Shown: positions 12,139 through 48,595 of the stretch, piece by piece | Position numbering within the stretch: the first letter of the stretch is position 1 | How the letters are laid out: every line of letters begins with the position of its first letter | Assembly (NCBI RefSeq): GCF_036365525.1 | Contig: NC_090371.1 | Span: forward strand, 103,262,211-103,326,210 | Length of the DNA: 64,000 nt | Direction of reading: 5' to 3' | DNA from: Heterodontus francisci | Lineage: Eukaryota | Made by a program: the position numbers and the translations under genes | The notes under the pieces: generated by a model | Seen by the model: the letters and a program-made list of their open reading frames with translations, nothing else | Databases searched by the model: none | Told to the model about the DNA's origin: nothing

Positions 12139-12151
12139 GGGTTTAAACTAA
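12139..12151 (+). promoter_or_regulatory. Putative -1 frameshift site G_GGU_UUA_AAC_UAA (copy A)
   Basis: TTTAAAC at 12142-12148 followed by the ORF1 stop; ORF2 frame FKLIQQGNG is open through it. Confidence 0.55.
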
Positions 12152-21166: not shown

Positions 21167-23629
21167 ATAGAACATAGAACATAGAACATAGAACATACAG
21201 CACAGAACAGGCCCTTCGGCCCACAATGTTGTGCCGATCCTTTGTCCTCTGTCAAGGACAATTTAATCTATACCCCATCATTCTCCTTTATCCATATACC
21301 TATCCAAAAGCCTTTTGAAAGTCCCTAAAGTTTCTGACTCAACAACTTCCCCGGGCAAGGCATTCCATGCCTCGACCACTCTCTGGGTAAAGAACCTTCC
21401 CCTGACATCCCCCTTATATCTCCCACCCTTCACCTTAAATTTATGACCCCTTGTAACGCTTTGCTCCACCCGGGGAAAAAGTTTCTGACTGTCTACCCTA
21501 TCTATTCCCCTGATCATCTTATAAACCTCTATCATGTCACCCCTCATCCTTCTCCTTTCTAATGAGAAGAGGCCTAGAATGTTCAGCCTTTCCTCGTAAG
21601 ACTTATTCTCCATTCCAGGCAACATCCTGGTAAATCTCCTCTGCACCCTCTCCAAGGCTTCCACATCCTTCCTAAAATGAGGCGACCAGAACTGCACACA
21701 GTACTCCAAATGAGGCCTTACCAAGGTCCTGTACAGCTGCATCATCACCTCACGGCTCTTAAATTCAATCCCTCTGCTAATGAACGCTAACACCCCATAT
21801 GCCTTCTTCACAGCCCTATCCACTTGAGTTGCAACTTTCAATGATCTATGCACATAGACCCCAAGGTCTCTCTGCTCCTCCACATGCCCAAGAACCCTAC
21901 CGTTAACCCAGTATTTTGCATTCATGTTTGTCCTTCCAAAATGGACGACCTCACACTTTTCAGGGTTAAACTCCATCTGCCACTTTTCAGCCCAGCACTG
22001 CAACCTATCCAAGTCCCTTTGCAGACGACAATAGCCCTCCTCGGTATCCACAACTCCACCAACCTTTGTATCATCTGCAAATTTACTGACCCACCCTTCG
22101 ACTTCCTCATCCAAGTCGTTAATAAAAATCACAAACAGGAGAGGACCCAGAACTGATCCCTGCGGCACGCCACTGGTAACTGGGCTCCAGGCTGAGTATT
22201 TACCATCTAAGACCACTCTCTGCCTTCTATCAGTTAGCCAATTCTTAATCCAACTGGCCACATTCCCCACTATCCCATGCCTCCTGACTTTCTCCATAAG
22301 TCTACCATGGGGGACCTTATCAAATGCCTTACTAAAATCCATGTACACCACATCCACTGGTTTACCCTCATCCACTTGCTTGGTCACCTGCTCAAAGAAT
22401 TCAATCAGGCTTGTGAGGCAAGACCTACCCCTCACAAAACCGTGCTGACTGTCCCGAATCAAGCAGTGTCTTTCCAGATGCTCATAAATCCTATCCCTCA
22501 GCACCCTTTCCATCAACTTGCCTACCACCGAAGTAAGACTAACTGGCCTGTAATTCCCAGGGTTGTTCCTATTCCCTTTCTTGAACAGGGGCACAACATT
22601 TGCCACCCTCCAATCACCTGGTACCACACCCGTCAGCAGAGAAGATGAAAAGATCATTGCCAGCGGCTCTGCAATTTCATCCCTTGCTTCCCATAACATC
22701 CTTGGATATACCCCGTCAGGCCCGGGAGACTTGTCTATCTTCAAGTTATTCAAAAACCCCAACACATCTTCCCTCCTAACGAGCACTTCCTCGAGCTTAC
22801 CAGTCTGTTTCACACCGTCCTCTTCAGTAATACACCCCTTCTCATTCGTAAATACCGAAGAGAAGTACTCATTCAAAACCTCACTTATCTCTTCCGGCTC
22901 AACACACAGTCTCCCGCTATTGTCCTTGACCGGACCTATGGTCCCCCTAGTCATCCTCATATTTCTGACATACGCGTAAAAGGCCTTGGGGTTTTCTTTT
23001 ATCCTACCCGCCAAGCATTTTTCATGCCCTCTCTTAGCTCTCCTAATCCCTTTCTTCAGATCCTTCCTGGCCATCTTGTATCCCTCCAGAGCTATGCCTG
23101 TGCCCTTTTTCCTCAACTTTATATACGCATCCTTCTTCTTCCTAACAAGACTCTCAACCTCTCTTGTCAACCACGGTTCCCTCACATGACCATCCCTTCC
23201 CTGTCTGACAGGGACATGCTTATCAATGGCCCCTACTATCTGCTCCTTGAAAAAGTTCCACATTTCGACCGTGCCCTTCCCTGCCAGCATATGCTCCCAA
23301 CTTATGCTCCTCAGTTCCTGCCTGACAGCATCATATCTACCCTTCCCCCAATTGTAAACCTTGCCCTGTTGCACATACCTATCCCTCTCCATTACCACAG
23401 TGAATGCTACAGAATTGTGATCACTATCTCCAAAGTGCTCGCCCACCAACAGCTCTATCACTTGCCCTGGTTCATTACCTAGTACCAAATCCAATATTGC
23501 CTCCCCTCTGGTCGGGCAGTCTACATACTGAGTCAGAAAAGCTTCCTGGACATACTGCACAAACACTACCCCATCCAAACTATTCGATCTAAAGAGTTGC
23601 CAATCAATATTTGGGAAGTTGAAATCCCC
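21167..23629 (-). mobile_element. Very young 5'-truncated CR1 LINE
   Basis: (TTCTATG)n tail; TSD CAGTACTT at 21159-21166 and 23630-23637. Confidence 0.95.
21278..23629 (-). CDS. CR1 ORF2, uninterrupted from GDFNFP (mid-APE) through RT to the stop; 5'-truncated
   Basis: About 780 codons without a stop; SDHN, NYRPVSLTS, QGSVLGP, FADD, HLEYCVQFW. Confidence 0.9.
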   Translation of the reverse strand, partial: GDFNFPNIDWQLFRSNSLDGVVFVQYVQEAFLTQYVDCPTRGEAILDLVLGNEPGQVIELLVGEHFGDSDHNSVAFTVVMERDRYVQQGKVYNWGKGRYDAVRQELRSISWEHMLAGKGTVEMWNFFKEQIVGAIDKHVPVRQGRDGHVREPWLTREVESLVRKKKDAYIKLRKKGTGIALEGYKMARKDLKKGIRRAKRGHEKCLAGRIKENPKAFYAYVRNMRMTRGTIGPVKDNSGRLCVEPEEISEVLNEYFSSVFTNEKGCITEEDGVKQTGKLEEVLVRREDVLGFLNNLKIDKSPGPDGVYPRMLWEARDEIAEPLAMIFSSSLLTGVVPGDWRVANVVPLFKKGNRNNPGNYRPVSLTSVVGKLMERVLRDRIYEHLERHCLIRDSQHGFVRGRSCLTSLIEFFEQVTKQVDEGKPVDVVYMDFSKAFDKVPHGRLMEKVRRHGIVGNVASWIKNWLTDRRQRVVLDGKYSAWSPVTSGVPQGSVLGPLLFVIFINDLDEEVEGWVSKFADDTKVGGVVDTEEGYCRLQRDLDRLQCWAEKWQMEFNPEKCEVVHFGRTNMNAKYWVNGRVLGHVEEQRDLGVYVHRSLKVATQVDRAVKKAYGVLAFISRGIEFKSREVMMQLYRTLVRPHLEYCVQFWSPHFRKDVEALERVQRRFTRMLPGMENKSYEERLNILGLFSLERRRMRGDMIEVYKMIRGIDRVDSQKLFPRVEQSVTRGHKFKVKGGRYKGDVRGRFFTQRVVEAWNALPGEVVESETLGTFKRLLDRYMDKGE

Positions 23630-25119
23630 CAGTACTTGTCTGCCTTATTTAAGGAAGTATGTAAATGCATTGGAGGCAGTAGAGAGAAGGTTTACTAGAG
23701 TAATACCTGGAATGGGTGGCCTGTCTTAAGAGGGAAGATTAGATAGGCTAGGCTTGTATCCGCTGGAATTTAGAAGAGTAAGAGGCGACTTGATTGAAAC
23801 AAATAAGATCCTGAGGGGTCTTGACAGGGTGGATGTAGAAAGGATGTTTCCCTTGTGGGCGCATCTTGAACTAGGGACCATTGTTTAAAAATAAGGGGTC
23901 ACCCATTTAAGACAGAGATGAGGAGAAATTTTTTCTCTCAGAGGGTCGTGAATCTTTGGAACTCTCTTCCTCAAAAGGCGATGGAAGCTGAGTCTTTGAA
24001 TATTTTTAAGGCAAAGGTAGATAGATTCTTGATATGCAGGGGGGTGGGAGGTTATCGGGAGTATGCAGGAATGTGGCGTAATCAGTTCAGCCATGAACTT
24101 ATTGAATGGCGGAGCAGGCTCGAGGGGTCAAGTGGCCTACTCCTGCTCCTAATTCATATATTCGTATGTTGTTCGTATGTTCGTAAGACTCCGCCTCAGC
24201 AGGGAAGCTGTCACTGACCTCTGCACTATGATGTAGAAGAAGCTGTGCCTTAGGGGAATTGGTGGGAATCCAATCCCAGTGGTGCTGAAGGTCACCATGG
24301 CACTGAACTTCAACATATCATGGATCATTCCATGGATCCATTGGGTCTGCGGGCGATCAGTGCATCAAGGAGAGCACCAATTCCCTTTTAGGAGGGCAGG
24401 CAACTATGCACGTTTCTGCATGGATGCCAACTCACAAGCTGAGAGGGCCATCGGTTTTGGGGCCATTGCTGGATTCCCCCAGTTGCATGGTGTCATCAAC
24501 TGCACTCATGTGGCCATCAAGACTCTGGAACACCAGCCAGCAGCCTTCACCAACAGGAAGGTCTTTCACTCCTTCAATGTACAACTGGCCTGTGACCACC
24601 GTAAATGAATCTTGCAGGTCTGTGCACGCTTTCCAGGAAGTTGTCATGATGCCTACATTTTGAGGCAGTCCCAGGTGCCGAAGTATTTCAGGTCTCCCTC
24701 TGGAATGGATACTTGGAGACAAGGGCTACCCACTAAGGACATGGCTACTGACGCCTGTAAGGATCCCAAACACAGATGCAGAGGGGAGGTTCAACGTCTG
24801 CTACGTGACAATGCGTGCGACAATAGAGCAGGCCATTGACCTGCTGAAGATACAATTCAGGTATCTAGATCAGTCTGATGGAGCCCTTCAGTATGCCCCG
24901 TCGAGGGTCTCACGCATCATGATGGTTTGTTGTGCACTGCACAACCTGGCGCTGCAGAGAAGGGAGCTGATGAGCAACAAGGATAGTGAGGAGTGGACTG
25001 CCTCCTCAGACGATGAGGATGTGGAGCGGGAAGATGGGCAAGCAATGCCAGATGAATGGCCCCAGAGACCACATCAAAGATGCCATGAGATACATGCAAT
25101 GGAGGCAGCAGGCAGTTGC

Positions 25120-30138: not shown

Positions 30139-33114
30139 CTGAACTGCCAGACAAACGGGAAATTTGGAAAACGGGAGGGAAACTAGGTCAGCATTTATTG
30201 CCCATCCCTAATTGCCCTTGAGCAGGTGGTGGTGAGCTGCCTTCTCGGACCATTGAAGTCCTTGGGGTGTAGGTACACCCACAGTGCTGTTAGGAAGGGA
30301 GTTCCAGGATTTTGACCCAGTGACAGTGAAGGTATGGCAATAAAGTTCCAAGTCATAGGAACAGGAGTAGGTCATTCCGTCCATCGAACCTGGTCCGCCA
30401 TTCAATACAATCATGGCTGATCATCCACTTCAATGCCTTTTACCCACACTATCCCCATATCCCCTTATGTTATTGGTATTTATAAATCAGTCAATCTCTG
30501 CTTTAAACATGCTCAATGACTGAGTTTCCACAGCCCTCTACGGTAGAGAATTCCAAAGATTCACAACCGGCTGAGTAGAGAAATTTCTCCTCATCTCTGT
30601 CTTAAGTGGCTTCCCCCTTATTTTGAAACTGTGTCCCCTGGTTCTAGACTCCCCAACTAGGGGAAGCATCTTACCTGCATATACCCTGTCTACCTTTAAG
30701 TATTTTGTAGGTTTCAATGAGATCACCTCTCATGCTTCGAAACTCTGGAGAATACAGGCACAGTTTCACCGATCTCTCTTCAAAGGACAGGGTCACCATC
30801 CAAGGAATAGGTCTGGCGAACCTTCTTTGCACTCCCTCTATGGCTATAATATCTTTCCTAAGGTAAAGGGACCAAAATTGTACACAGTACTCCAAGTGCG
30901 GTCTAACCAAGGTTCCATACAATTGAAGAAAGTATTCACTACTCCTGTACTCAAATCCTCTTGCGATAAAGGCTAACCTACCATTAGCCTTCTTAATTGC
31001 ATGCTGCACCTGATGTTAGATTTCAGTAACTTATTGACAAGGATACCCAGGTCCCTTTGTACATCTACACTTTCTAATCTCTTGCCATTTAAGAAATACA
31101 CTGCACATCTATTCCTCCTACCAAAATGGATAACCTCACATTTTTCCACATTATATTCCATCTGCCACATTCTTGCCCACTCACTAACTTTGTCCAAATC
31201 CCCTTGAAGTCGCTTTGCATCTTCCTCACAACACACATTCCCACCTAGTTTTGTGTCATCCACGAATTTGGAAATACTACATTTGGTCCCCACATCCAAA
31301 TCATTGATATATATTGTGAACAGCTGGGGCCCACTAGTCACAGCCTGCCAATTTGAGAATGGCCGTTTATTCCTACTCTCTGTTTTCTGCCTGTTAACCA
31401 ATTCTTAATCCATGCCAGTATATTACCTCCTATCCCATGTGCTTTATTTTGACAACGAACCTCCTATGGGGGACTTATCAACGGCCTTTTGAAAATCCAA
31501 GTATACCACGCCCACCGACTCCCCTTTATCAATTCTGTTAGCAACATCCTCAAAAAATTCCAACAGGTTCGTCAAACATGATTTCCCATTCATAAATCCA
31601 TGTTGACTATGCTCAATCAGATCATTATTATCCATGTCCATTTAACACATCCTTTAGAATAGATTCTAGCATTTTCCCAACGATTGATGCAAGGCAAACA
31701 GGTCTGTAATTCCCTGTGTTTTCTCTCCCTCCCTTCTTAAATAGTGGGGTGACATTTGCGAACTGCGGGAACCGCTCCAGAATCTATAGAATTTTGGAAG
31801 ATGATCACCAATGCATCCACGAACTGCATAGCTACCTCTTTCAATATTCTTGGATGTAGGTCCTAGGGACTTATCAACCTTCAGCCCCATTAATTTCCAA
31901 TACAACCTTCTTACGAATACTAATTTCCTTCAATTCCTCAGTCCCCCAATCCCTTGGATTTCTAATTCTGGGAGATTTCTTGTATCTTCCTCAATGAAGA
32001 CAGATACAAAGTATTCATTTAACTTCTTTGCCATTTCTCTATTCCCCATGATAAATTCTCTGGACTCTGCCTGTAATGGACCCAAATTTGTCAGCCAAGC
32101 GTTTCCATTTTTTACAGTCCGTTTTTATAATTTTTGCAAGCTAACATTCATATTCTATTCTCCCTTTCTTTATCAGTTTCTTCATCCTCCTCTGCTGTAT
32201 TCTAAAATCCTCCCAATCCTCAGGTTTACTACTATTTCTGGCAACTTTATAGGCCTTATCTTTTAATCTTATACAATCCTTAACTTCCTTTATTATCCAT
32301 GGTTGACTGCCTTTACTTCTGGGGTTTTTGTGCCTTGTGGGAATGTATAGTTGCTGTAAACTATGTAATATTTCTTTAAAGACTATGCATTGTCAATGTT
32401 CTATCATACCTTTTAATGTATTTTCCCAATCCACCTCAGCCAATTTGCCCCACATACCTTCATAATTTCCTTTGTTCAAATTTAATACGGTGGCTTCAGA
32501 TTGAACTACCTCACTTTCAAACATAATGTAAAATTCTATCATATTATGGTCACTCATCTCTAAAGGTTCTTTTACAACAAGATTATTAATTAACCCTTTC
32601 TCATTACATAATACTAGATCTAAAATAGCCTGTTCTCTGTTCGGTTCCTCAGAAAACTAACACACTCCAGAAACTCGTCCTCCACAGCATTAGTGTTCAT
32701 TAGGTTTACCCAGTCTATATGCAGATTGAAGACACCCGTGATTACTGCATTATCCATGCTACATGCTTCTCTAATCTCCTGATTAATGCTATGCCCCACA
32801 CTACCGCTACTGTTTGGTGACCGATAAACAACTTCTACCCAATGTTTGCTTCCCATTGCTGTTTCTTAGCTCCACCCAAACAGATCCCACATTTTGTTCT
32901 TCCAATCTGAGATACTCTCTTACTAATGTACTGATCCCTTCCCTCCTCCTCCTCCTCCACCCTCCTCCTCTAACCAAAAAAAAAGGACTCTGGTGTGTTG
33001 ATAAGGTAAGCTTTTTATTTAAGAAGTTCTGTCCGTTGGATTGCTAACCTAACAAGTTTTGACTTTTTGTTTTTGGTTTTTCAGTAGATTTGTTGGGAAT
33101 TTGGAATAGTGGGA

Positions 33115-34050
33115 ATGGAGGTTAAGGCAGTTGTATGTTCCTCCTGCAGAATGTGGGAGGTAAGGGTCGCCAAGAGTGTCCCTGCTGACTGCATCTGTGG
33201 GAAGTGCACCCAACTCCAGCTCCTCGAGAACCGCGTTAGGGAACTGGAGCTGGAGCTGGATGAACTTCGGATCATTCGGGAGGCGGAGGAGGTTATTGAG
33301 AGGAGTTGTGGGGAGGTAGTCACACCTCAGGTAAAAGAAGTAGGTAGATGGGTTACCGTCAGGGGAAGGAGAGGGAACCAGCAGGCAGTGCAGGGATCCC
33401 CTGTGGCCGTTTCCCTCAACAACAGGTATACCGTTTTGGATACTGTTGCAGGGGACGACTTACCAGGGGTAAGCAATGGGGTACAGATATCTGGCACAGA
33501 GTCTGTCCCTGTTGCTCAGAAGGGAAGGGGGAAGAGGAGCAGAACATTAGTCATTGGGGACTCCATAGTTAGGGGAACAGATAGGAGGTTCTGTGGGAAC
33601 GAGAGAGACTCACGGTTGGTATGTTGCCTCCCAGGTGCCAGGGTTCGTGATGTCTCGGATCATGTTTATGGGATTCTTAAGGGGGAGGGGGAGCAGCCCC
33701 AAGTCGTGGTCCACATAGGCACCAACGACATAAGTAGGAAGAGAGATGGGGATTTAAGACAGAAATTCAGGGAGCTAGGGTGGAAGCTTAGAGCGAGAAC
33801 AAACAGAGTTGTTATCTCTGGGTTGTTGCCCGTGCCACGTGATAGCGAAGCGAGGAATAGGGAGAGAAAGGAGTTGAACACGTGGCTGCAGGGATGGTGC
33901 AGGAGGGAGGGTTTTGGTTTCCTGGATAATTGGGGCTCTTTCTGGGGTAGGTGGGACCTCTACAAACAGGATGGTCTTCACCTGAACCAGAGGGGTACCA
34001 ATATCCTGGGGGGGAGGTTTGCTAGTGCTCTTCGGGGGGGTTTAAACTAA
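33115..34050 (+). CDS. CR1 ORF1p: zinc finger, leucine zipper and SGNH/GDSL esterase
   Basis: CSSC...CGKC, LLENRVRELELELDEL, IGDSIVR, CLPGA, HIGTND, DGLHLN; uninterrupted. Confidence 0.92.
   Translation: MEVKAVVCSSCRMWEVRVAKSVPADCICGKCTQLQLLENRVRELELELDELRIIREAEEVIERSCGEVVTPQVKEVGRWVTVRGRRGNQQAVQGSPVAVSLNNRYTVLDTVAGDDLPGVSNGVQISGTESVPVAQKGRGKRSRTLVIGDSIVRGTDRRFCGNERDSRLVCCLPGARVRDVSDHVYGILKGEGEQPQVVVHIGTNDISRKRDGDLRQKFRELGWKLRARTNRVVISGLLPVPRDSEARNRERKELNTWLQGWCRREGFGFLDNWGSFWGRWDLYKQDGLHLNQRGTNILGGRFASALRGGLN
34038..34050 (+). promoter_or_regulatory. Putative -1 frameshift site G_GGU_UUA_AAC_UAA (copy B)
   Basis: ORF1 codon TTA begins at 34042 and ORF2 codon TTT at 34041; the -1 frame is open into the APE domain. 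Confidence 0.6.
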
Positions 34051-36922
34051 TTCAGCAGGGGAATGGGAACCTAAACTGTAGTGCCAGTGTACAGGATGTT
34101 GAGAGCAGTGAGGTCAGGGATATGGTTACAAGGACGCAAGAGGGCACTGGCAAGCAAGAACCTGGTTTAAAGTGTGTCTATTTCAACGCCAGGAGCATCC
34201 GGAATAAGGTGGGTGAGCTTGCAGCATGGGTTGGTACCTGGGATCTCGATGTAGTGGCCATTTCGGAGACATGGGTAGAGCAGGGGCAGGAATGGATGTT
34301 GCAGATTCCGGGATTTAGATGTTTCAGTAAGAACAGAGAAGATGGTAAAAGAGGGGGGGGTGTGGCATTGTTAATCAAGGAGAGTATTACAGCGACAGAA
34401 AGGACGTTTGAGGACTCGTCTACTGAGGTAGTATGGGCCGAGGTTAGAAACAGGAGAGGTGAGGTTACCCTGTTGGGAGTCTTTTATAGACCTCCGAATA
34501 GTTCCAGAGATGTAGAGGAAAGGATAGCGAAGATGATTCTCGACAGGGGCGAGAGTAACAGGGTAGTTGTTATGGGGGACTTTAACTTTCCAAATATCGA
34601 CTGCAAATACTATAGTTCGAGTACTTTAGATGGGTCAGTTTTTGTCCAGTGTGTGCAGGAGGGTTTTCTGACACAGTATGTAGACAGGCCAACCAGGGGC
34701 GATGCCACATTGGATTTGGTACTGGGAAATGAACCCGGCCAGGTGTTAGATTTAGATGTAGGTGAGCACTTTGGTGATAGTGATCACAATTCGGTTAGGT
34801 TTACCTTAGCGATGGGCAGGGACAGGTATATACCGCAGGGCAAGAATTATAGCTGGGGGAAAGGAAATTATGATGCGATTAGGCAAGATTTAGGATGCGT
34901 AGGATGGGGAAGGAAACTGCAGGGGATGGGAACAATCGAAATGTGGGGCTTATTCAAGGAGCAGCTACTGCGTGTCCTTGATAAGTATGTACCTGTGAGG
35001 CAGGGAGGAAGTTGTCGAGCGAGGGAGCCGTGGTTTAATAAAGAAGTTGAAGCGCTTGTCAAGAGGAAGAAGGCGGCTTATGTTAGGATGAGACGTGAAG
35101 GCTCAGTTAGGGCGCTTGAGAGGTCCAAGCTAGCCAGGAAGGATCTAAAGGGATAGCTAAGAAGAGCAAGGAGAGGACACGAGAAGTCATTGGTGGATAG
35201 GATCATGGAAAACCCTAAGGCTTTCTATAGGTATATCAGGAATAAAAGAATGACTCGAGTTAGATTAGGGCCAATCAAGGATAGTAGTGGGAAGTTGTGT
35301 GTGGAATCAGAGGAGATAGGGGAAGTGTTAAATGAATATTTTGCGTCAGTATTTACAGTAGAGAAAGAAAATGTTGTTGAGAATACTGAGATTCAGGCTA
35401 CTAGGTTAGATGGGATTGAGGTTCACAAGGAGGAGGTGTTAGCAATTTTGGAAAGTGTGAAAATAGATGTCCCCTGGGCCAGATGGGATTTATCCTAGGA
35501 TTCTCTGGGAAGCTAGGGAGGAGATTGCAGAGCCTTTGTCCTTGATCTTTATGTCGTCATTGTCGACAGGTATAGTGCCGGAAGACTGGAGGATAGCAAA
35601 TGTTGTCCCCTTGTTCAAGAAGGGGAGTAGAGACAGCCCTGGTAATTATAGACCTGTGAGCCTTACTTCGGTTGTGGGTAAAATGTTGGAAAAGGTTATA
35701 AGAGACAGGATTTATAATCATCTTGAAAAGAATAAGTTCATTAGAGATAGTCAGCACGGTTTTGTGACGGGTAGGTCGTGCCTCACCTATTGAGTTTTTC
35801 GAGAAGGTGACCAAACAGGTGGATGAGGGTAAAGCAGTGGATGTGGTGTATATGGATTTCAGTAAGGCGTTTGATAAGGTTCCCCACGGTAGGCTATTGC
35901 AGAAAATACGGAAGTATGGGGTGGAAGGTGATTTAGAGCTTTGGATCAGAAATTGGCTAGCTGAAAGAAGACAGAGGGTGGTGGTTGATGGCAAATGTTC
36001 ATCCTGGAGTTTAGTTACTAGTGGTGTACCGCAAGGATCTGTTTTGGGGCCACTGCTGTTTGTCATTTTTATAAATGACCTGGAAGAGGGTGTAGAAGGG
36101 TGGGTTAGTAAATTTGCAGATGACACTAAGGTCGGTGGAGTTGTGGATAGTGCCGAAGGATGTTGTAGGGTACAGAGGAACATAGATAGGCTGCAGAGCT
36201 GGGCTGAGAGATGGCAAATGGAGTTTAATGCGGAAAAGTGTGAGGTGATTCACTTTGGAAGGAGTAACAGGAATGCAGAGTACTGGGCTAATGGGAAGAT
36301 TCTTGGTAGTGTAGATGAACAGAGAGATCTTGGTGTCCAGGTGCATAAATCCCTGAAGGTTGCTAACCAGGTTAATAGGGCTGTTAAGAAGGCATATGGT
36401 GTGTTAGCTTTTATTAGTAGGGGGATCGAGTTTCGGAGCCACGAGGTCATGCTGCAGCTGTACAAAACTCTGGTGAGACCGCACCTGGAGTATTGCGTGC
36501 AGTTCTGGTCACTGCATTATAGGAAGGATGTGGAAGCTATGGAAAGGGTGCAGAGGAGATTTACTAGGATGTTGCCTGGTATGGAGGGAAGGTCTGACGA
36601 GGAAAGGCTGAGGGACTTGAGGTTGTTTTCGTTGGAGAGAAGGAGGAGGAGAGGTGACTTAATAGAGACATATAAGATAATCAGAGGGTTAGATAGGGTG
36701 GATAGTGAGAGTCTTTTTCCTCGGATGGTGATGGCAAACACGAGGGGACATAGCTTCAAGTTGAGGGGTGATAGATATAGGACAGATGTGAGAGGTAGTT
36801 TCTTTACTCAGAGAGTAGTAAGGGCGTGGAACGCCCTGCCTGCAGCAGTAGTAGATTCGCCAACTTTAAGGGCATTTAAGTGGTCATTGGATAGATATAT
36901 GGATGAAAATGGAATAGTGTAG
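34041..36922 (+). pseudogene. CR1 ORF2 (APE-RT) of copy B
   Basis: All APE/RT motifs; nonsense at 35154 and small deletions near 35378, 35467 and 35786 relative to copy A. Confidence 0.93.
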
Positions 36923-37362: not shown

Positions 37363-38301
37363 CTAGTTTAAACCCTCCCCAACAGCACTAGCAAATCTCC
37401 CTGCAAGGATGTTAGTTCTGGTCCTGTTAAGGCGTGGCCCTTCCATCATGTACAGATCCCACCTGCCCCAGAACCGGTCCCAATGCCTCAGAAATCTGAT
37501 GCCCTCCCTCCTACACCAATTCTCCAGCCATGTGTTCAATCGATCAATCCTCCTATTCCTATGCTCACGACCACGTGGCACTGGGACTAATCCTGAGATT
37601 ACTGCTTTGGAGGTCCTGCTTTTTAATTTCCTTCCAAGCTCCCTAAAATCTGCTTTCAGAACCTCATCCCTCTTCCTACCTGTGTCATTGGTACCAATGT
37701 GGACCATGACCGCCCTTGCCCAGAAGGATGTCCTGCAGCTGCTCCCTGACATCCTTGACCCTGGCACCAGGGAGGCAACACATCATCCTGGAGTTACGTT
37801 TACTGCCTAAGAAACACCTGTCTGATCCCCTGACTATCGAATCCCTTATCACTGTTGCTCTTCCACTCTTCTTCTTCCCCTCCTGTGCAGCTGAACCACC
37901 CCTGGTGCCACAGACTTTACTGAGGCTGCACACCCCCGAGGAACCATCGCTCTCACCAGTATGCAAAATGGAAAACCGATTATCAAGCAAGATAGACTCA
38001 GGGGACTCCTGCACTGCCCGCCTGTTCTCTTAAACTGCCTGGTGGTCACCCATTCCCTCTCTGCCTGCATGCTCCTAACCTGCGAAGTGACCACCTCCCT
38101 AAATGTGCTATCCACATAGTCCTCTGCCTCGCGGATGCACAACAGTGACTCCAGCCGCCGCTCGAGTTCCAAAATCTGAAGTTCAAGCTTCTGCAGCAGG
38201 TGACACTTCCTGCAGATGTGTTCGTCTACGACATGTAGTACGTCCATGACTTTCCATATACTGCAGGACATACATTCCACTTGGCTGAGCTGACATGCCA
38301 T
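37363..38301 (-). pseudogene. CR1 ORF1 of copy D (decayed)
   Basis: MACQLSQVECMSC...CRKC, DSIVRG, CCLPGA, HIGTND; ends GEGLN* with GGGTTTAAACTAG. Confidence 0.88.
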
Positions 38302-43886: not shown

Positions 43887-44834
43887 ATGGCAGGAGATCT
43901 CAGACCCGTGTCATGCTCCTCTTGCTCAATGTGGGAGCTCAGGGACATGGCTGATGTCCCTGACTCCTTCACGTGCAGGAAGTGTGTCCAACTGCAGCTC
44001 TTGTTAGACCGCATGACGGCTCTCGAGCTGCGGATGGACTCACTTTGGAGCATGCGCGATGCTGAGGAGGTCGTGGATAGCACGTTTAGTGAATTGGTCA
44101 CACCGCAGATTAGGATTGCTGAGGGAGAAAGGGAATGGGTGACCAAAAGGCAGAGAAAGAGCAGGAAGGCAGCGCAGGAGTCCCCTGCGGTCATCTCCCT
44201 CCAAAACAAGTATACCGTTTTGGATACTGTTGAGGGAGATGGCTCACCAGGGGAAGGCAGCAGTAGCCAGGTCCATGGCACCGTGGCTGGCTCTGCTGTT
44301 CAGAAGGGCGGGAAAAAGAGTGGAAGGGCTATAGTCGTAGGGGATTCGATTGTAAGAGGAGTAGATAGGCGGTTCTGTGGTCGAAGACGAGGCTCCCGAA
44401 TGGTATGTTGCCTCCCAGGTGCACGGGTCAGGGATGTCTCAGATCGGCTGCAAAACATTCTGAAGGGGGAGGGTGAACAGCCAGTTGTCATTGTGCACAT
44501 AGGCACCAATGATATAGGTAAAAAACGGGATGAGGTCCTACAAGCAGAGTTTAGGGAGTTAGGAGCCAAGTTAAAAAGCAGGACCTCAGAGGTAGTAATC
44601 TCAGAATTGCTACCAGTGCCACGTGATAGTCAGAGTAAAAATGAAAGAATAGTCAGGATGAATGCGTGGCTTGAGAGATGGTGCAGGAAGGAGGGGTTCA
44701 GATTTTTGGGACATTGGGACCGGTTCTGGGGGAGGTGGGACTATTACAAATTGGATGGTCTACACCTGGGCCGGACTGGAACCAATGTCCTTGGGGGTGC
44801 TTTTGCTAACGCTGTTGGGGAGGGTTTAAACTAA
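43887..44834 (+). CDS. CR1 ORF1p (zinc finger, coiled coil, SGNH esterase)
   Basis: MAGDLRPVSCSSC...CRKC, VGDSIVRG, HIGTND, DGLHL; ends GEGLN* in GGGTTTAAACTAA. Confidence 0.92.
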   Translation: MAGDLRPVSCSSCSMWELRDMADVPDSFTCRKCVQLQLLLDRMTALELRMDSLWSMRDAEEVVDSTFSELVTPQIRIAEGEREWVTKRQRKSRKAAQESPAVISLQNKYTVLDTVEGDGSPGEGSSSQVHGTVAGSAVQKGGKKSGRAIVVGDSIVRGVDRRFCGRRRGSRMVCCLPGARVRDVSDRLQNILKGEGEQPVVIVHIGTNDIGKKRDEVLQAEFRELGAKLKSRTSEVVISELLPVPRDSQSKNERIVRMNAWLERWCRKEGFRFLGHWDRFWGRWDYYKLDGLHLGRTGTNVLGGAFANAVGEGLN

Positions 44835-44970
44835 TGTGGCAGGGGGATGGGAACCAATTGAGGTCAGTTGACAGTAAGGAGGTAGTAACAAAAGCCTGTA
44901 AGGAACTAGATAATGAAGTCAGTGTGACTAAGGGGAAGAGCAGGCAGGGAGCAGATGATGAATATAATAT

Positions 44971-46998: not shown

Positions 46999-48595
46999 AG
47001 AGAGGATCTAGATCGGCGCAGGCTTGGAGGGCCGAAGGGCCTGTTCCTGTGCTGTAATTATCTTTGTTCTTTGTTCTTTGTGCTGGCTCAAAAATCTCTC
47101 CTGAAGGCACTTTAAGAATTCTGCCTCTTTAAGCCTTTTGCACTCATACTATCTCCTCTAATATGGGGGAAGTTGAAATCCCCTACTATTATTACCCTAT
47201 TATTTTTGCACTTGTCTGAGATTTTCCGACCTATTTGCTCCTCTATCTCTCCCTGATTATTTGGAGGCCTGTAGTACACTCACAACCAAGTGATTGCCCT
47301 CTTTTTGTTTTTATGTTCTACTCATATGGCCTCATTAGAGGAACCTTCCAAGATATCATCCCTCCATACTGCAGTAATTGACTCCTTAATCAACAGTGCA
47401 ATGCCACCTCCTCTTTTACACCCTCCCCTATCACGCCTGAAGATTTTATACCCTGGGATATTGAGCTGCCAGTCCTGCCCTTCCCTAAACCATGTCTCAG
47501 TGATAGCAATAATATCATATTCCCATGTGTTAATCAATGCCCTCAGTTCATCTGCCTTACTCGTATGACTCCTTGCGTTAAAATAGATACAATCCAGCCT
47601 TGCATTATTTGCTTGAGCCTTAACAGGCCTATATTTACTCTGCCCTCCAGACTGACTTAGTTTCTATATTTGATTGTATAACACCCCCTACTTTGCTTCC
47701 ACCCTGTATCCCATCCCCCTGCCAAATTAGTTTAACCACCCCCCCAACAGCACTAGCAAACCTCCCAGCAAGGATGTTGGTCCCATTCCAGTTCAGGTCC
47801 AACCCGTCCAACTTGTACAGATCCCACCTTCACCAAAAACAGGCCCAGTGATCTAGGAAACTAAAGCCCTCCCTCCTGCACCATCTCTTCAGCCACACAT
47901 TCATCTGCTTGAACCTCCTATTCTTATACTCACTAGCCTGTGGCACTGGGAGAAACCCAGAGATTACAACCTTTGAGGTCCTACTCTTTAATCTGTTACC
48001 TAGCTCCTTATATTCTTTTTGCAGGACCTCATCCCTCTTTCTACCTATGTCATTGGTACCAATGTGGATCATGACCTTCCAGAATGCACTGTAGCCGCTC
48101 AGTGATATCCATGACCCTTGCACCAGGGAGGCAACATACCATCCTGCCATCTACGACCACAAAAACGCCCATCTGTTCCTCTAACCATAGAATCCCCTAC
48201 CACTATTGCCCTCATGTCCCCTTTTCTCGATCCCAGCACAGCTGAGTCACTCATGATGTTCTGGTCATGTCTCTCGGTGCACTGTCCAGAGGAACCCTCT
48301 TCCCTATCGGTACTCAGAACTGAATACCGGTTAGAAAGTGGGATGTCCTCTGGGAACTCCTGCACTACCTGTCCTGACCTCTTTGTCCGTCCGGCAGCCA
48401 TCCAATCCCCTTCCGACTGTGCTTGCCTTGGCACGGTGTTGACCACCGCCTGAAACGTGCCGTCCACGTAGTCCTCCACCTCGCAGATGCTCCACAGTGA
48501 CTCCAGCCGCCCTTCGAGCTCCGAAACCCAAAGCTCAAGCTTCTGCAACCGGAGACACTTTCTGCAGACATGTTCGCCAAGGTCACGTGGCATGT

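Follow-up and report, generated by a model that had tools for sequence, protein, structure and literature searches.

Viral and retroviral genes of the gag-pol type use programmed −1 ribosomal frameshifting to extend an abundant upstream protein into a polymerase encoded in the −1 frame, with only a short overlap between the two open reading frames (ORFs). The canonical stimulator of such events is an RNA structure 5-9 nt downstream of the slippery heptamer. Passages of a review on recoding place U_UUA_AAC, the heptamer of the 1a/1b junction in the coronavirus infectious bronchitis virus, among the most shifty on mammalian ribosomes; they also name frameshifting in the gag of HeT-A and mention CR1 0 times (PMC5009743). 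For long interspersed nuclear elements (LINEs) at large, reviews describe the mode of ORF2 translation, in the parts that deal with it, as an open question (PMC3894237, PMC5009743). According to a figure legend in a further review, a −1 frameshift is required for ORF2 of TRE5-A and TRE3-A in Dictyostelium (PMC5911963), and part of a study of Paramecium LINEs suggests either a +1 frameshift or reinitiation (PMC5405496). Here we describe CR1 elements in a 64,000-nt stretch of the genome of the shark Heterodontus francisci (NC_090371.1, positions 103,262,211 to 103,326,210; hereafter the window), whose esterase ORF1 ends on exactly this heptamer with ORF2 in the −1 frame, and we argue from their sequences that ORF2 is likely made by programmed −1 ribosomal frameshifting at U_UUA_AAC, as an ORF1p-ORF2p fusion.

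The elements are classed as CR1-clade LINEs on the basis of their domains, their 3' ends and their matches to consensuses labelled LINE/CR1, in which a near-identical junction sequence is present. ORF1 is an SGNH esterase (PF13472 in copies B and C), ORF2 encodes an APE endonuclease followed by a reverse transcriptase (PF03372, PF14529 and PF00078; the PDB matches are L1 endonuclease structures), and the short 3' untranslated region (UTR) ends in tandem repeats such as (TTCTAA)n or (TTCTATG)n, without poly(A). The same layout, i.e. esterase ORF1, APE-RT ORF2 and a short 3' UTR with a tandem-repeat end, is given for canonical vertebrate CR1 in portions of PMC13343379 and PMC3905857, the former of which attributes 22-34% of shark and ray genomes to CR1-group elements. 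In the 6.0 Gb of genome searched, the C-terminal motif of ORF1 has 34,930 matching places, and the best named ORF1 homologues come from sharks and rays. Two side observations belong here: seven near-identical CR1 copies about 18.5 kb apart (L031-L037, G000:C1:70,000-185,000) form a large tandem duplication, and two shark-type CR1 ORF1 proteins (P0007, P0117) are labelled as SGNH hydrolases of Pseudomonas aeruginosa and Proteus mirabilis, which is likely to reflect contamination with host DNA.

Within the window, GGGTTTAAAC has exactly four matches (12139+, 34038+, 44822+ and 37375−), against a mean of 0.17 and a maximum of 2 in 100 shuffles of the window. Each is followed directly by TAA or TAG, which closes an SGNH-esterase ORF1, just as the initial annotation had it for copies A, B, C and D. 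The fifth copy, E (minus strand, 47737-47727), reads GGTTAAACTAA and had rightly been called decayed, both frames being merged. Frame reading also bore out an ORF2 in the −1 frame that is free of stops between the site and the first motif of the endonuclease (YFNARS or YLNARS) in copies A, B and D, and the −1-frame peptide KLxxQG(D/N)G, said to be common to all five copies, reads KLIQQGNG in A and B, KLMWQGDG in C, KLACQGDG in D and KLIWQGDG in E. Equally, what had been stated about AUG codons holds: B has an ATG at 34122 (present in 31 of 36 copies of its lineage) where A has AAG, C has TAATG, and the first Met of D lies 45 codons past the CTA codon. In copy A the −1 frame stays open for 632 codons.

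Which heptamer is conserved? Two overlapping ones had been proposed, G_GGU_UUA and U_UUA_AAC, and only the second stands. Complete ORF1 ends were available for 74 of 135 homologous proteins, and 61 of the 74 end in Leu-Asn, those named coming from sharks, rays, frogs and turtles; the remaining 13 comprise nine distant teleost-type sequences, because of which the signal cannot be common to all esterase LINEs, and four near relatives whose end is damaged or variant. Leu-Asn is preceded by Gly in 28 of the 61, and otherwise by Thr (12), Ala (6), Ser (4), Asp (3), Cys (3), Phe (2), or Tyr, Leu or Val (one each). Glu, Lys, Gln, Met and Trp, whose codons never end in U, are found there in 0 of 61, as opposed to 35 and 19 of 61 for the two residues just before; further upstream, too, some positions hold few of them (2-3 of 61). 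Among 24 lineage representatives (20 from this genome, four non-shark), T occupies each U position in 23 and AAACTA is present in all 24, while the G at −8, the middle G of G_GGU_UUA, is present in just 12, which together with the Gly count led us to reject G_GGU_UUA as the shift site. As the junction finder weighted AACT and the G run, there is some circularity in those columns; it made no use of the TTT columns, and placement with a hidden Markov model alone gave the same junction position for intact copies. The conserved signal is U_UUA_AAC plus a UAA or UAG stop, and G_GGU_UUA is limited to some lineages.

The first two U of the heptamer are silent in ORF1 and are nevertheless fixed. Genome-wide, among 36,931 junctions composed of any codon, Leu, Asn and stop in main-lineage context, 34,336 (93%) read T TTA AAC, and the controls returned 5 and 0. 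T>C changes number 216 at silent U1, 77 at silent U2 and 246 at non-silent U3, so silent changes are no commoner; the variants listed come from many lineages, the pattern that post-insertion decay should leave, and no lineage visible to the main-lineage pattern has a fixed silent change. That pattern is blind to Ala- and Thr-type lineages, which were sampled separately and read GCTTTAAAC in 18 of 22 copies (three of the remainder being mis-anchored) and ACTTTAAAC in 19 of 20. TTA encodes the terminal Leu of 14 of the 15 lineages but just 1 of 73 Leu at five further conserved positions, and the exceptions at Leu-Asn (one CTA, one AAT) are single copies with intact siblings. Free synonymous variation at the slip codons, which had been named as evidence that would count against frameshifting, is therefore not seen. 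It could still be argued that selection acts on the protein end Leu-Asn alone, its codons being held by descent or codon bias, and some further ORF1 codons are indeed invariant among the shark lineages. However, TTA makes up 11-17% of the Leu codons in ORFs of the window, it is hardly used at the other conserved Leu positions just mentioned, and identical letters recur in consensuses of distant vertebrates, so that this explanation, the least credible of those considered here, is already largely refuted by codon and consensus evidence. Judged by these comparisons, the feature is real, ancient and under constraint at the nucleotide level.

The reading phase is as regular as the heptamer. The 189 junction candidates fall into 34 clusters, 12 of which contain at least three copies (163 copies); clusters 3 and 8, with linkers 79% identical, are sisters, and most other linkers are only about 40% alike, i.e. 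unrelated. All 12 multi-copy lineages have −1 as their modal phase, with stop-to-Asn distances of seven lengths (137, 149, 155, 167, 176, 206 and 209 nt), and copy by copy it is −1 in 122 of the 145 with an endonuclease motif found (two mis-anchored rows of cluster 1 dropped) and in 124 of 154 when all shark copies are counted. On modal-length copies, lineage-wide stops in the linker number 0 in 644 codons of the −1 frame, 49 in 632 of the 0 frame and 64 in 632 of the +1 frame, where composition predicts 42.6; with representatives picked by similarity alone, the corresponding counts are 4, 45 and 54. Four of 20 extended natural copies are open for 964-998 codons from the site to the end of ORF2, the remainder being broken. 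Hence neither an ORF2 in the 0 or +1 frame of a related lineage nor lineage-wide in-frame stops in the linker, both of which the initial annotation had listed as potential refutations, were encountered. As a separate observation, cluster 1 (L125-L149) together with L069 displays two alternative 3' halves of the linker behind one and the same 5' half, one of the 3' halves being that also found in L069, which suggests recombination between lineages inside the linker.

Where, then, could ribosomes enter ORF2? An in-frame AUG ahead of the endonuclease Asn is dispensable, being absent from seven of 12 lineages and present in the linker of the other five. Most copies of lineages 3/8, 6, 7 and 11 have no Met in the stretch read or a first one at least 37 codons past this Asn, beyond the Glu that aligns with Glu43 of the L1 endonuclease, which we take to be catalytic. 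Upstream of the site, the −1 frame is closed by a stop 3 or 7 codons away in most copies of 10 of 12 lineages (7 codons in most of them, 3 in lineages 1, 2 and 13, where just GGC or GAC, TTT and AAA stand between this stop and that of ORF1), so that ribosomes must enter ORF2 at the site or immediately behind it. We considered a start further 5' in the −1 frame, with dual coding of Phe-Lys-Leu, and rejected it because this −1 stop lies only 3 codons 5' in several lineages. The block CAGGGGRATGGG 3' of the site, which had been regarded as conserved and as a possible stimulator, fared no better as a start, its ATG lying in the ORF1 frame and missing in lineages 1, 2, 6, 9 and 11. The T of the upstream −1 stop (34023-34025 and equivalents) falls on the third position of a variable ORF1 codon and is nonetheless present in 15 of 15 lineages; this stop looks conserved in its own right and may cull ribosomes that have slipped early.

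It is conceivable that the heptamer is an RNA signal of another kind, acting in packaging, termination efficiency or protein binding, and that ORF2 starts downstream by scanning or internal entry at codons particular to each lineage. The linker AUG of five lineages would suit such a route, as would an internal entry site of the kind suggested for LINE intergenic regions in a passage of PMC3894237. Yet this model, which we consider very unlikely, does not predict a fixed phase and zero stops from the ORF1 stop onwards in linkers that are otherwise unrelated, and the linker is without structure.

The junction is not confined to this shark. Six of 24 metagenome loci reach it with TTAAACTAG; five of them read GCTTTAAACTAG and one (L081) TCGTTAAACTAG, and four of the five presumably have bird-like ORF1 ends. 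In L081, L084 and L086 the −1 frame runs without a stop into the endonuclease; in L082 it is interrupted by one stop. In Supplementary Table 2 of PMC13343379, searched over the first 400 letters of each cell for positives only, tttaaacta occurs in 23 cells, 17 times at the ORF1 end as judged by eye and six times incidentally, the consensuses being too gappy for frames to be read. The codes of the 17 are AllMis, CroPor, AmiCal, AquCat, CalMil, LatCha, HypSab, PriPec, ScyCan, SquAca and AldAff, and in AllMis_CR1-1b of the same table the stop is followed by 7 nt and then GGGGGATGGG, which is exactly the shark spacing. We interpret the codes as alligator, crocodile, bowfin, bullfrog, chimaera, coelacanth, rays, sharks and a teleost. 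Scanning contigs of prokaryote genomes and of viruses with the tetrapod-type alignment brought up no relative, matches in the supplement of PMC4316615 are confined to the 3' ends of ORF2, and amniotes and invertebrates were sampled less fully than is feasible.

If the frameshift model is correct, the majority of ribosomes would stop at the end of ORF1 and release ORF1p. In a minority, the Leu and Asn tRNAs would slip back by one base (UUA AAC to UUU AAA), CUA would be decoded next, and the slipped ribosomes would traverse the variable stop-free linker to produce an esterase-linker-endonuclease-RT fusion of about 1,270-1,320 amino acids, with the junction in copy B predicted to read ...L-N|L-I-Q-Q-G. 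The slippage itself, the fusion and its ratio to ORF1p are what we infer from the conserved pattern. In heptamer, phase and open frame the CR1 site matches a viral −1 site, by sequence at least, and it would follow the same gag-pol logic; unlike viral sites, it resides in a non-LTR (long terminal repeat) element, is not accompanied by any protease that we could see, has its stop abutting the heptamer, and shows no canonical structured stimulator.

The stimulator is the weakest step of the frameshift model. What lies 3' of the site is a G-rich motif with the pattern GGGG-G-nn-GG-G, which begins at a fixed spacing of 10 nt after the heptamer and has G in 21-24 of 24 representatives at +10 to +13 and in 22-23 of 24 at +17 and +18. 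The encoded residue before the Gly at this motif varies (Gln, Gly, Arg, Glu or Lys), and the retention of the G positions in spite of this points to a signal at the RNA level. For 13 of 24 representatives, among them none of the copy B lineage, the minimum-energy fold includes a G-quadruplex, in a calculation that had no shuffle control; G-quadruplexes stimulate frameshifting in synthetic constructs, as noted in a section of PMC5009743. That source also covers the nsp2 frameshift of the arterivirus PRRSV, where nsp1beta and a poly(C)-binding protein act on CCCANCUCC located 11 nt 3' of the shift site. The CR1 motif is likewise short and unstructured, and its spacing is similar; in contrast to that of PRRSV it is G-rich, and the analogy is a tentative one. 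Speculatively, the abutting stop and the G-rich motif might cause the ribosome to pause, perhaps, in the case of the motif, by way of a protein bound to it. Local stem-loops and long-range pairing were both rejected as stimulators, there being no shared fold and no shared partner. Nor does the motif pair better with the 3' UTR of its own element (−19.6 kcal/mol) than with those of other lineages (−19.4 kcal/mol).

Several findings weigh against frameshifting and have to be set beside the evidence in its favour. A heptamer without a stimulator slips poorly, and neither in the 60 nor in the 100 nt after the stop was a stable or conserved fold found, the mean z against shuffles being +0.21 and +0.41 with none below −2 (24 and 23 representatives, with a program that does not predict pseudoknots), so that any stimulator would be unconventional. 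No long-range partner of the G motif is conserved, the best ones being at scattered positions along the element. Thirty of the 154 shark copies are out of phase; those inspected (clusters 1, 2 and 7) carry indels in G runs and in di- or trinucleotide repeats, some of them common to several copies. Within this genome silent sites fall short of saturation, as seen from three further ORF1 codons without any variation (11 of 11) and from a different Asn that is written AAC in 13 of 14. One non-shark locus, L081, present as a single copy, has G_UUA_AAC in place of the heptamer, with the −1 frame open.

The −1 phase and the open linker are predicted equally well by coupled termination-reinitiation, the main rival, in which ribosomes would restart on a codon overlapping the stop (UAAUG geometry), tolerate non-AUG codons, and yield a separate ORF2p, assisted by the G motif and the UUA AAC context. 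SART1 and human L1 are bicistronic with ORF2 dependent on ORF1 translation, UAAUG sets the same −1 phase for ORF2, and TAATG is found in one of our lineages. In the passages concerned, SART1 is described as using UAAUG plus a downstream element (PMC3894237), ORF2 initiation in L1 as AUG-independent (PMC5009743), and near-cognate codons as tolerated in restarts directed by a TURBS, a ribosome-binding site upstream of termination (PMC10275272). Across the 12 lineages the codon overlapping the stop is ATG in one, GTG in two and ATT in four, and these seven keep reinitiation alive; the initial annotation, which had set it aside, was too quick in doing so. On the other hand, an ATG at the stop is found in 1 of 12 lineages, with a near-cognate in six more, and the overlapping codon is GTT, GTC, GCT or AAT in the other five and GAT, GGT or GTA in non-shark loci. 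UGGGA is the TURBS motif. It does not recur at a shared upstream position, and lineages 3, 8 and 11, as well as three bird-like loci, lack it altogether over 130 nt. Whereas SART1 and L1 yield separate proteins, CR1 lacks the AUG in most lineages and has a fixed slippery heptamer, and reinitiation leaves unexplained why a precise X_XXY_YYZ should be fixed at silent sites, one of them the last base of a codon that varies freely. We therefore regard reinitiation as unlikely, and the other alternatives, even taken together, as rather less likely still. As to programmed −1 frameshifting at the ORF1 stop as originally put forward, it withstood the synonymous, frame and linker-stop checks and lost its second heptamer.

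A spliced or internally started RNA could also deliver ORF2, for instance with the upstream TAG as 3' splice site, the heptamer then being incidental. This receives some encouragement from TTTGCTAG, found 5' of the site in many lineages with its T invariant in 15 of 15, and from donor-like motifs in the 5' UTR, which in lineages 0, 4 and 10 lie 70-111 nt 5' of the ATG. Contigs from eight runs cover the region, those of two runs bridge the junction unspliced, and no joint with GT..AG ends was seen among the joints shown (15 of 22 shown in one set, 4 of 4 in another), a weak absence given that most runs are only guessed to be RNA and that contigs drop rare forms. The young TAATG lineage has TAA at the position of the upstream TAG, and the heptamer would be left unexplained, so that this route is highly improbable. 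Two further observations concern the same region. The 5' UTR of copy B contains an intron-like stretch of 79 nt just 5' of the ORF1 ATG (33006-33084, plus strand; AG|GTAAG, CTAAC, a T-rich tract and CAG), which is kept in genomic copies and corresponds to no such joint in RNA-type contigs. A contig of run X10, on record as RNA, displays clustered A>G differences over 33818-34260, including 34044, 34045, 34049 and 34050, that abolish both heptamer and stop; the pattern looks like adenosine-to-inosine hyper-editing, the alternative being a diverged copy.

Table 1. Features of the CR1 copies in the window, in window coordinates.
Feature	Position	Strand	Remarks
ORF1 of copy B, 311 aa, SGNH/GDSL esterase, end G-G-L-N-stop	33115..34050	+	PF13472 E 8e-14; ATG 33115
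−1-frame stop TAG, 7 codons 5' of the ORF1 stop; 5' closure of the ORF2 frame	34023..34025	+	
Slippery heptamer U_UUA_AAC of copy B, likely shift site	34041..34047	+	
ORF1 stop codon abutting the heptamer	34048..34050	+	TAA/TAG in 24/24 lineage representatives
G-rich motif, here GGGGAATGGG, candidate unstructured stimulator	34058..34067	+	Starts 10 nt past the heptamer
−1-frame linker of copy B, 46 codons, site to endonuclease Asn	34047..34184	+	
ORF2 APE and RT of copy B, broken: −1 frame closes at 35156; RT part 35768-36922	34185..36922	+	
Heptamer and stop of copy A (lineage of B); linker without AUG	12142..12151	+	
Copy C (TAATG lineage), heptamer with stop; has lost its endonuclease	44825..44834	+	
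Heptamer and stop of copy D	37363..37372	−	
Decayed junction of copy E	47727..47737	−	GGTTTAAAC-TAA intact in 13/19 other copies of the E lineage

Elsewhere in the window, copy C has lost about 790 nt at 44968, including the endonuclease, when compared with L218, by a deletion joint that is unique to it among the loci compared. A 788-codon open ORF2 fragment on the minus strand (21278-23644) belongs to another, 5'-truncated CR1 lineage, and many more decayed CR1 pieces lie throughout the window.

How do these elements relate to what has been written about CR1? The main text of PMC13343379 contains zero instances of 'frameshift', 'overlap' or 'translation', and PMC3905857 has zero of 'frameshift'. 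A proposal of CR1 frameshifting is absent from the passages concerned in PMC2881922, PMC4255032, PMC13405545, PMC1925062, PMC2734521 and PMC5006619 and from the full-text matches listed, a scope that leaves the chicken and turtle CR1 papers of the 1990s and the Repbase reports outside, and no paper in the full-text literature search combined CR1, slippery, retrotransposon and ORF1. CR1 can also be set beside TRE5-A and TRE3-A, which are APE-type non-LTR elements like CR1 but of another host and element family; the resemblance would lie in the −1 frameshift described for their ORF2.

What would frameshifting mean for CR1? ORF2p would bear ORF1p at its N-terminus, unlike that of L1, CR1 ORF2 annotations that begin at a downstream Met would be truncated, and the setting of the ORF1p:ORF2p stoichiometry would find an explanation in a signal as short as about 30 nt. 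More tentatively, and here we would put the chances at somewhat below even, the dominant LINE of most jawed vertebrates may have used a Gag-Pol-like −1 frameshift to make an esterase-endonuclease-RT fusion since before the split of sharks and bony vertebrates, without an RNA fold and driven by the stop and the G motif, the latter either read by a protein or forming a G-quadruplex. A G-rich motif that stimulates slippage without a fold would matter to the recoding field, and such a drive by stop and motif would be a stimulator of a kind new to frameshifting, and a point at which CR1 activity is controlled.

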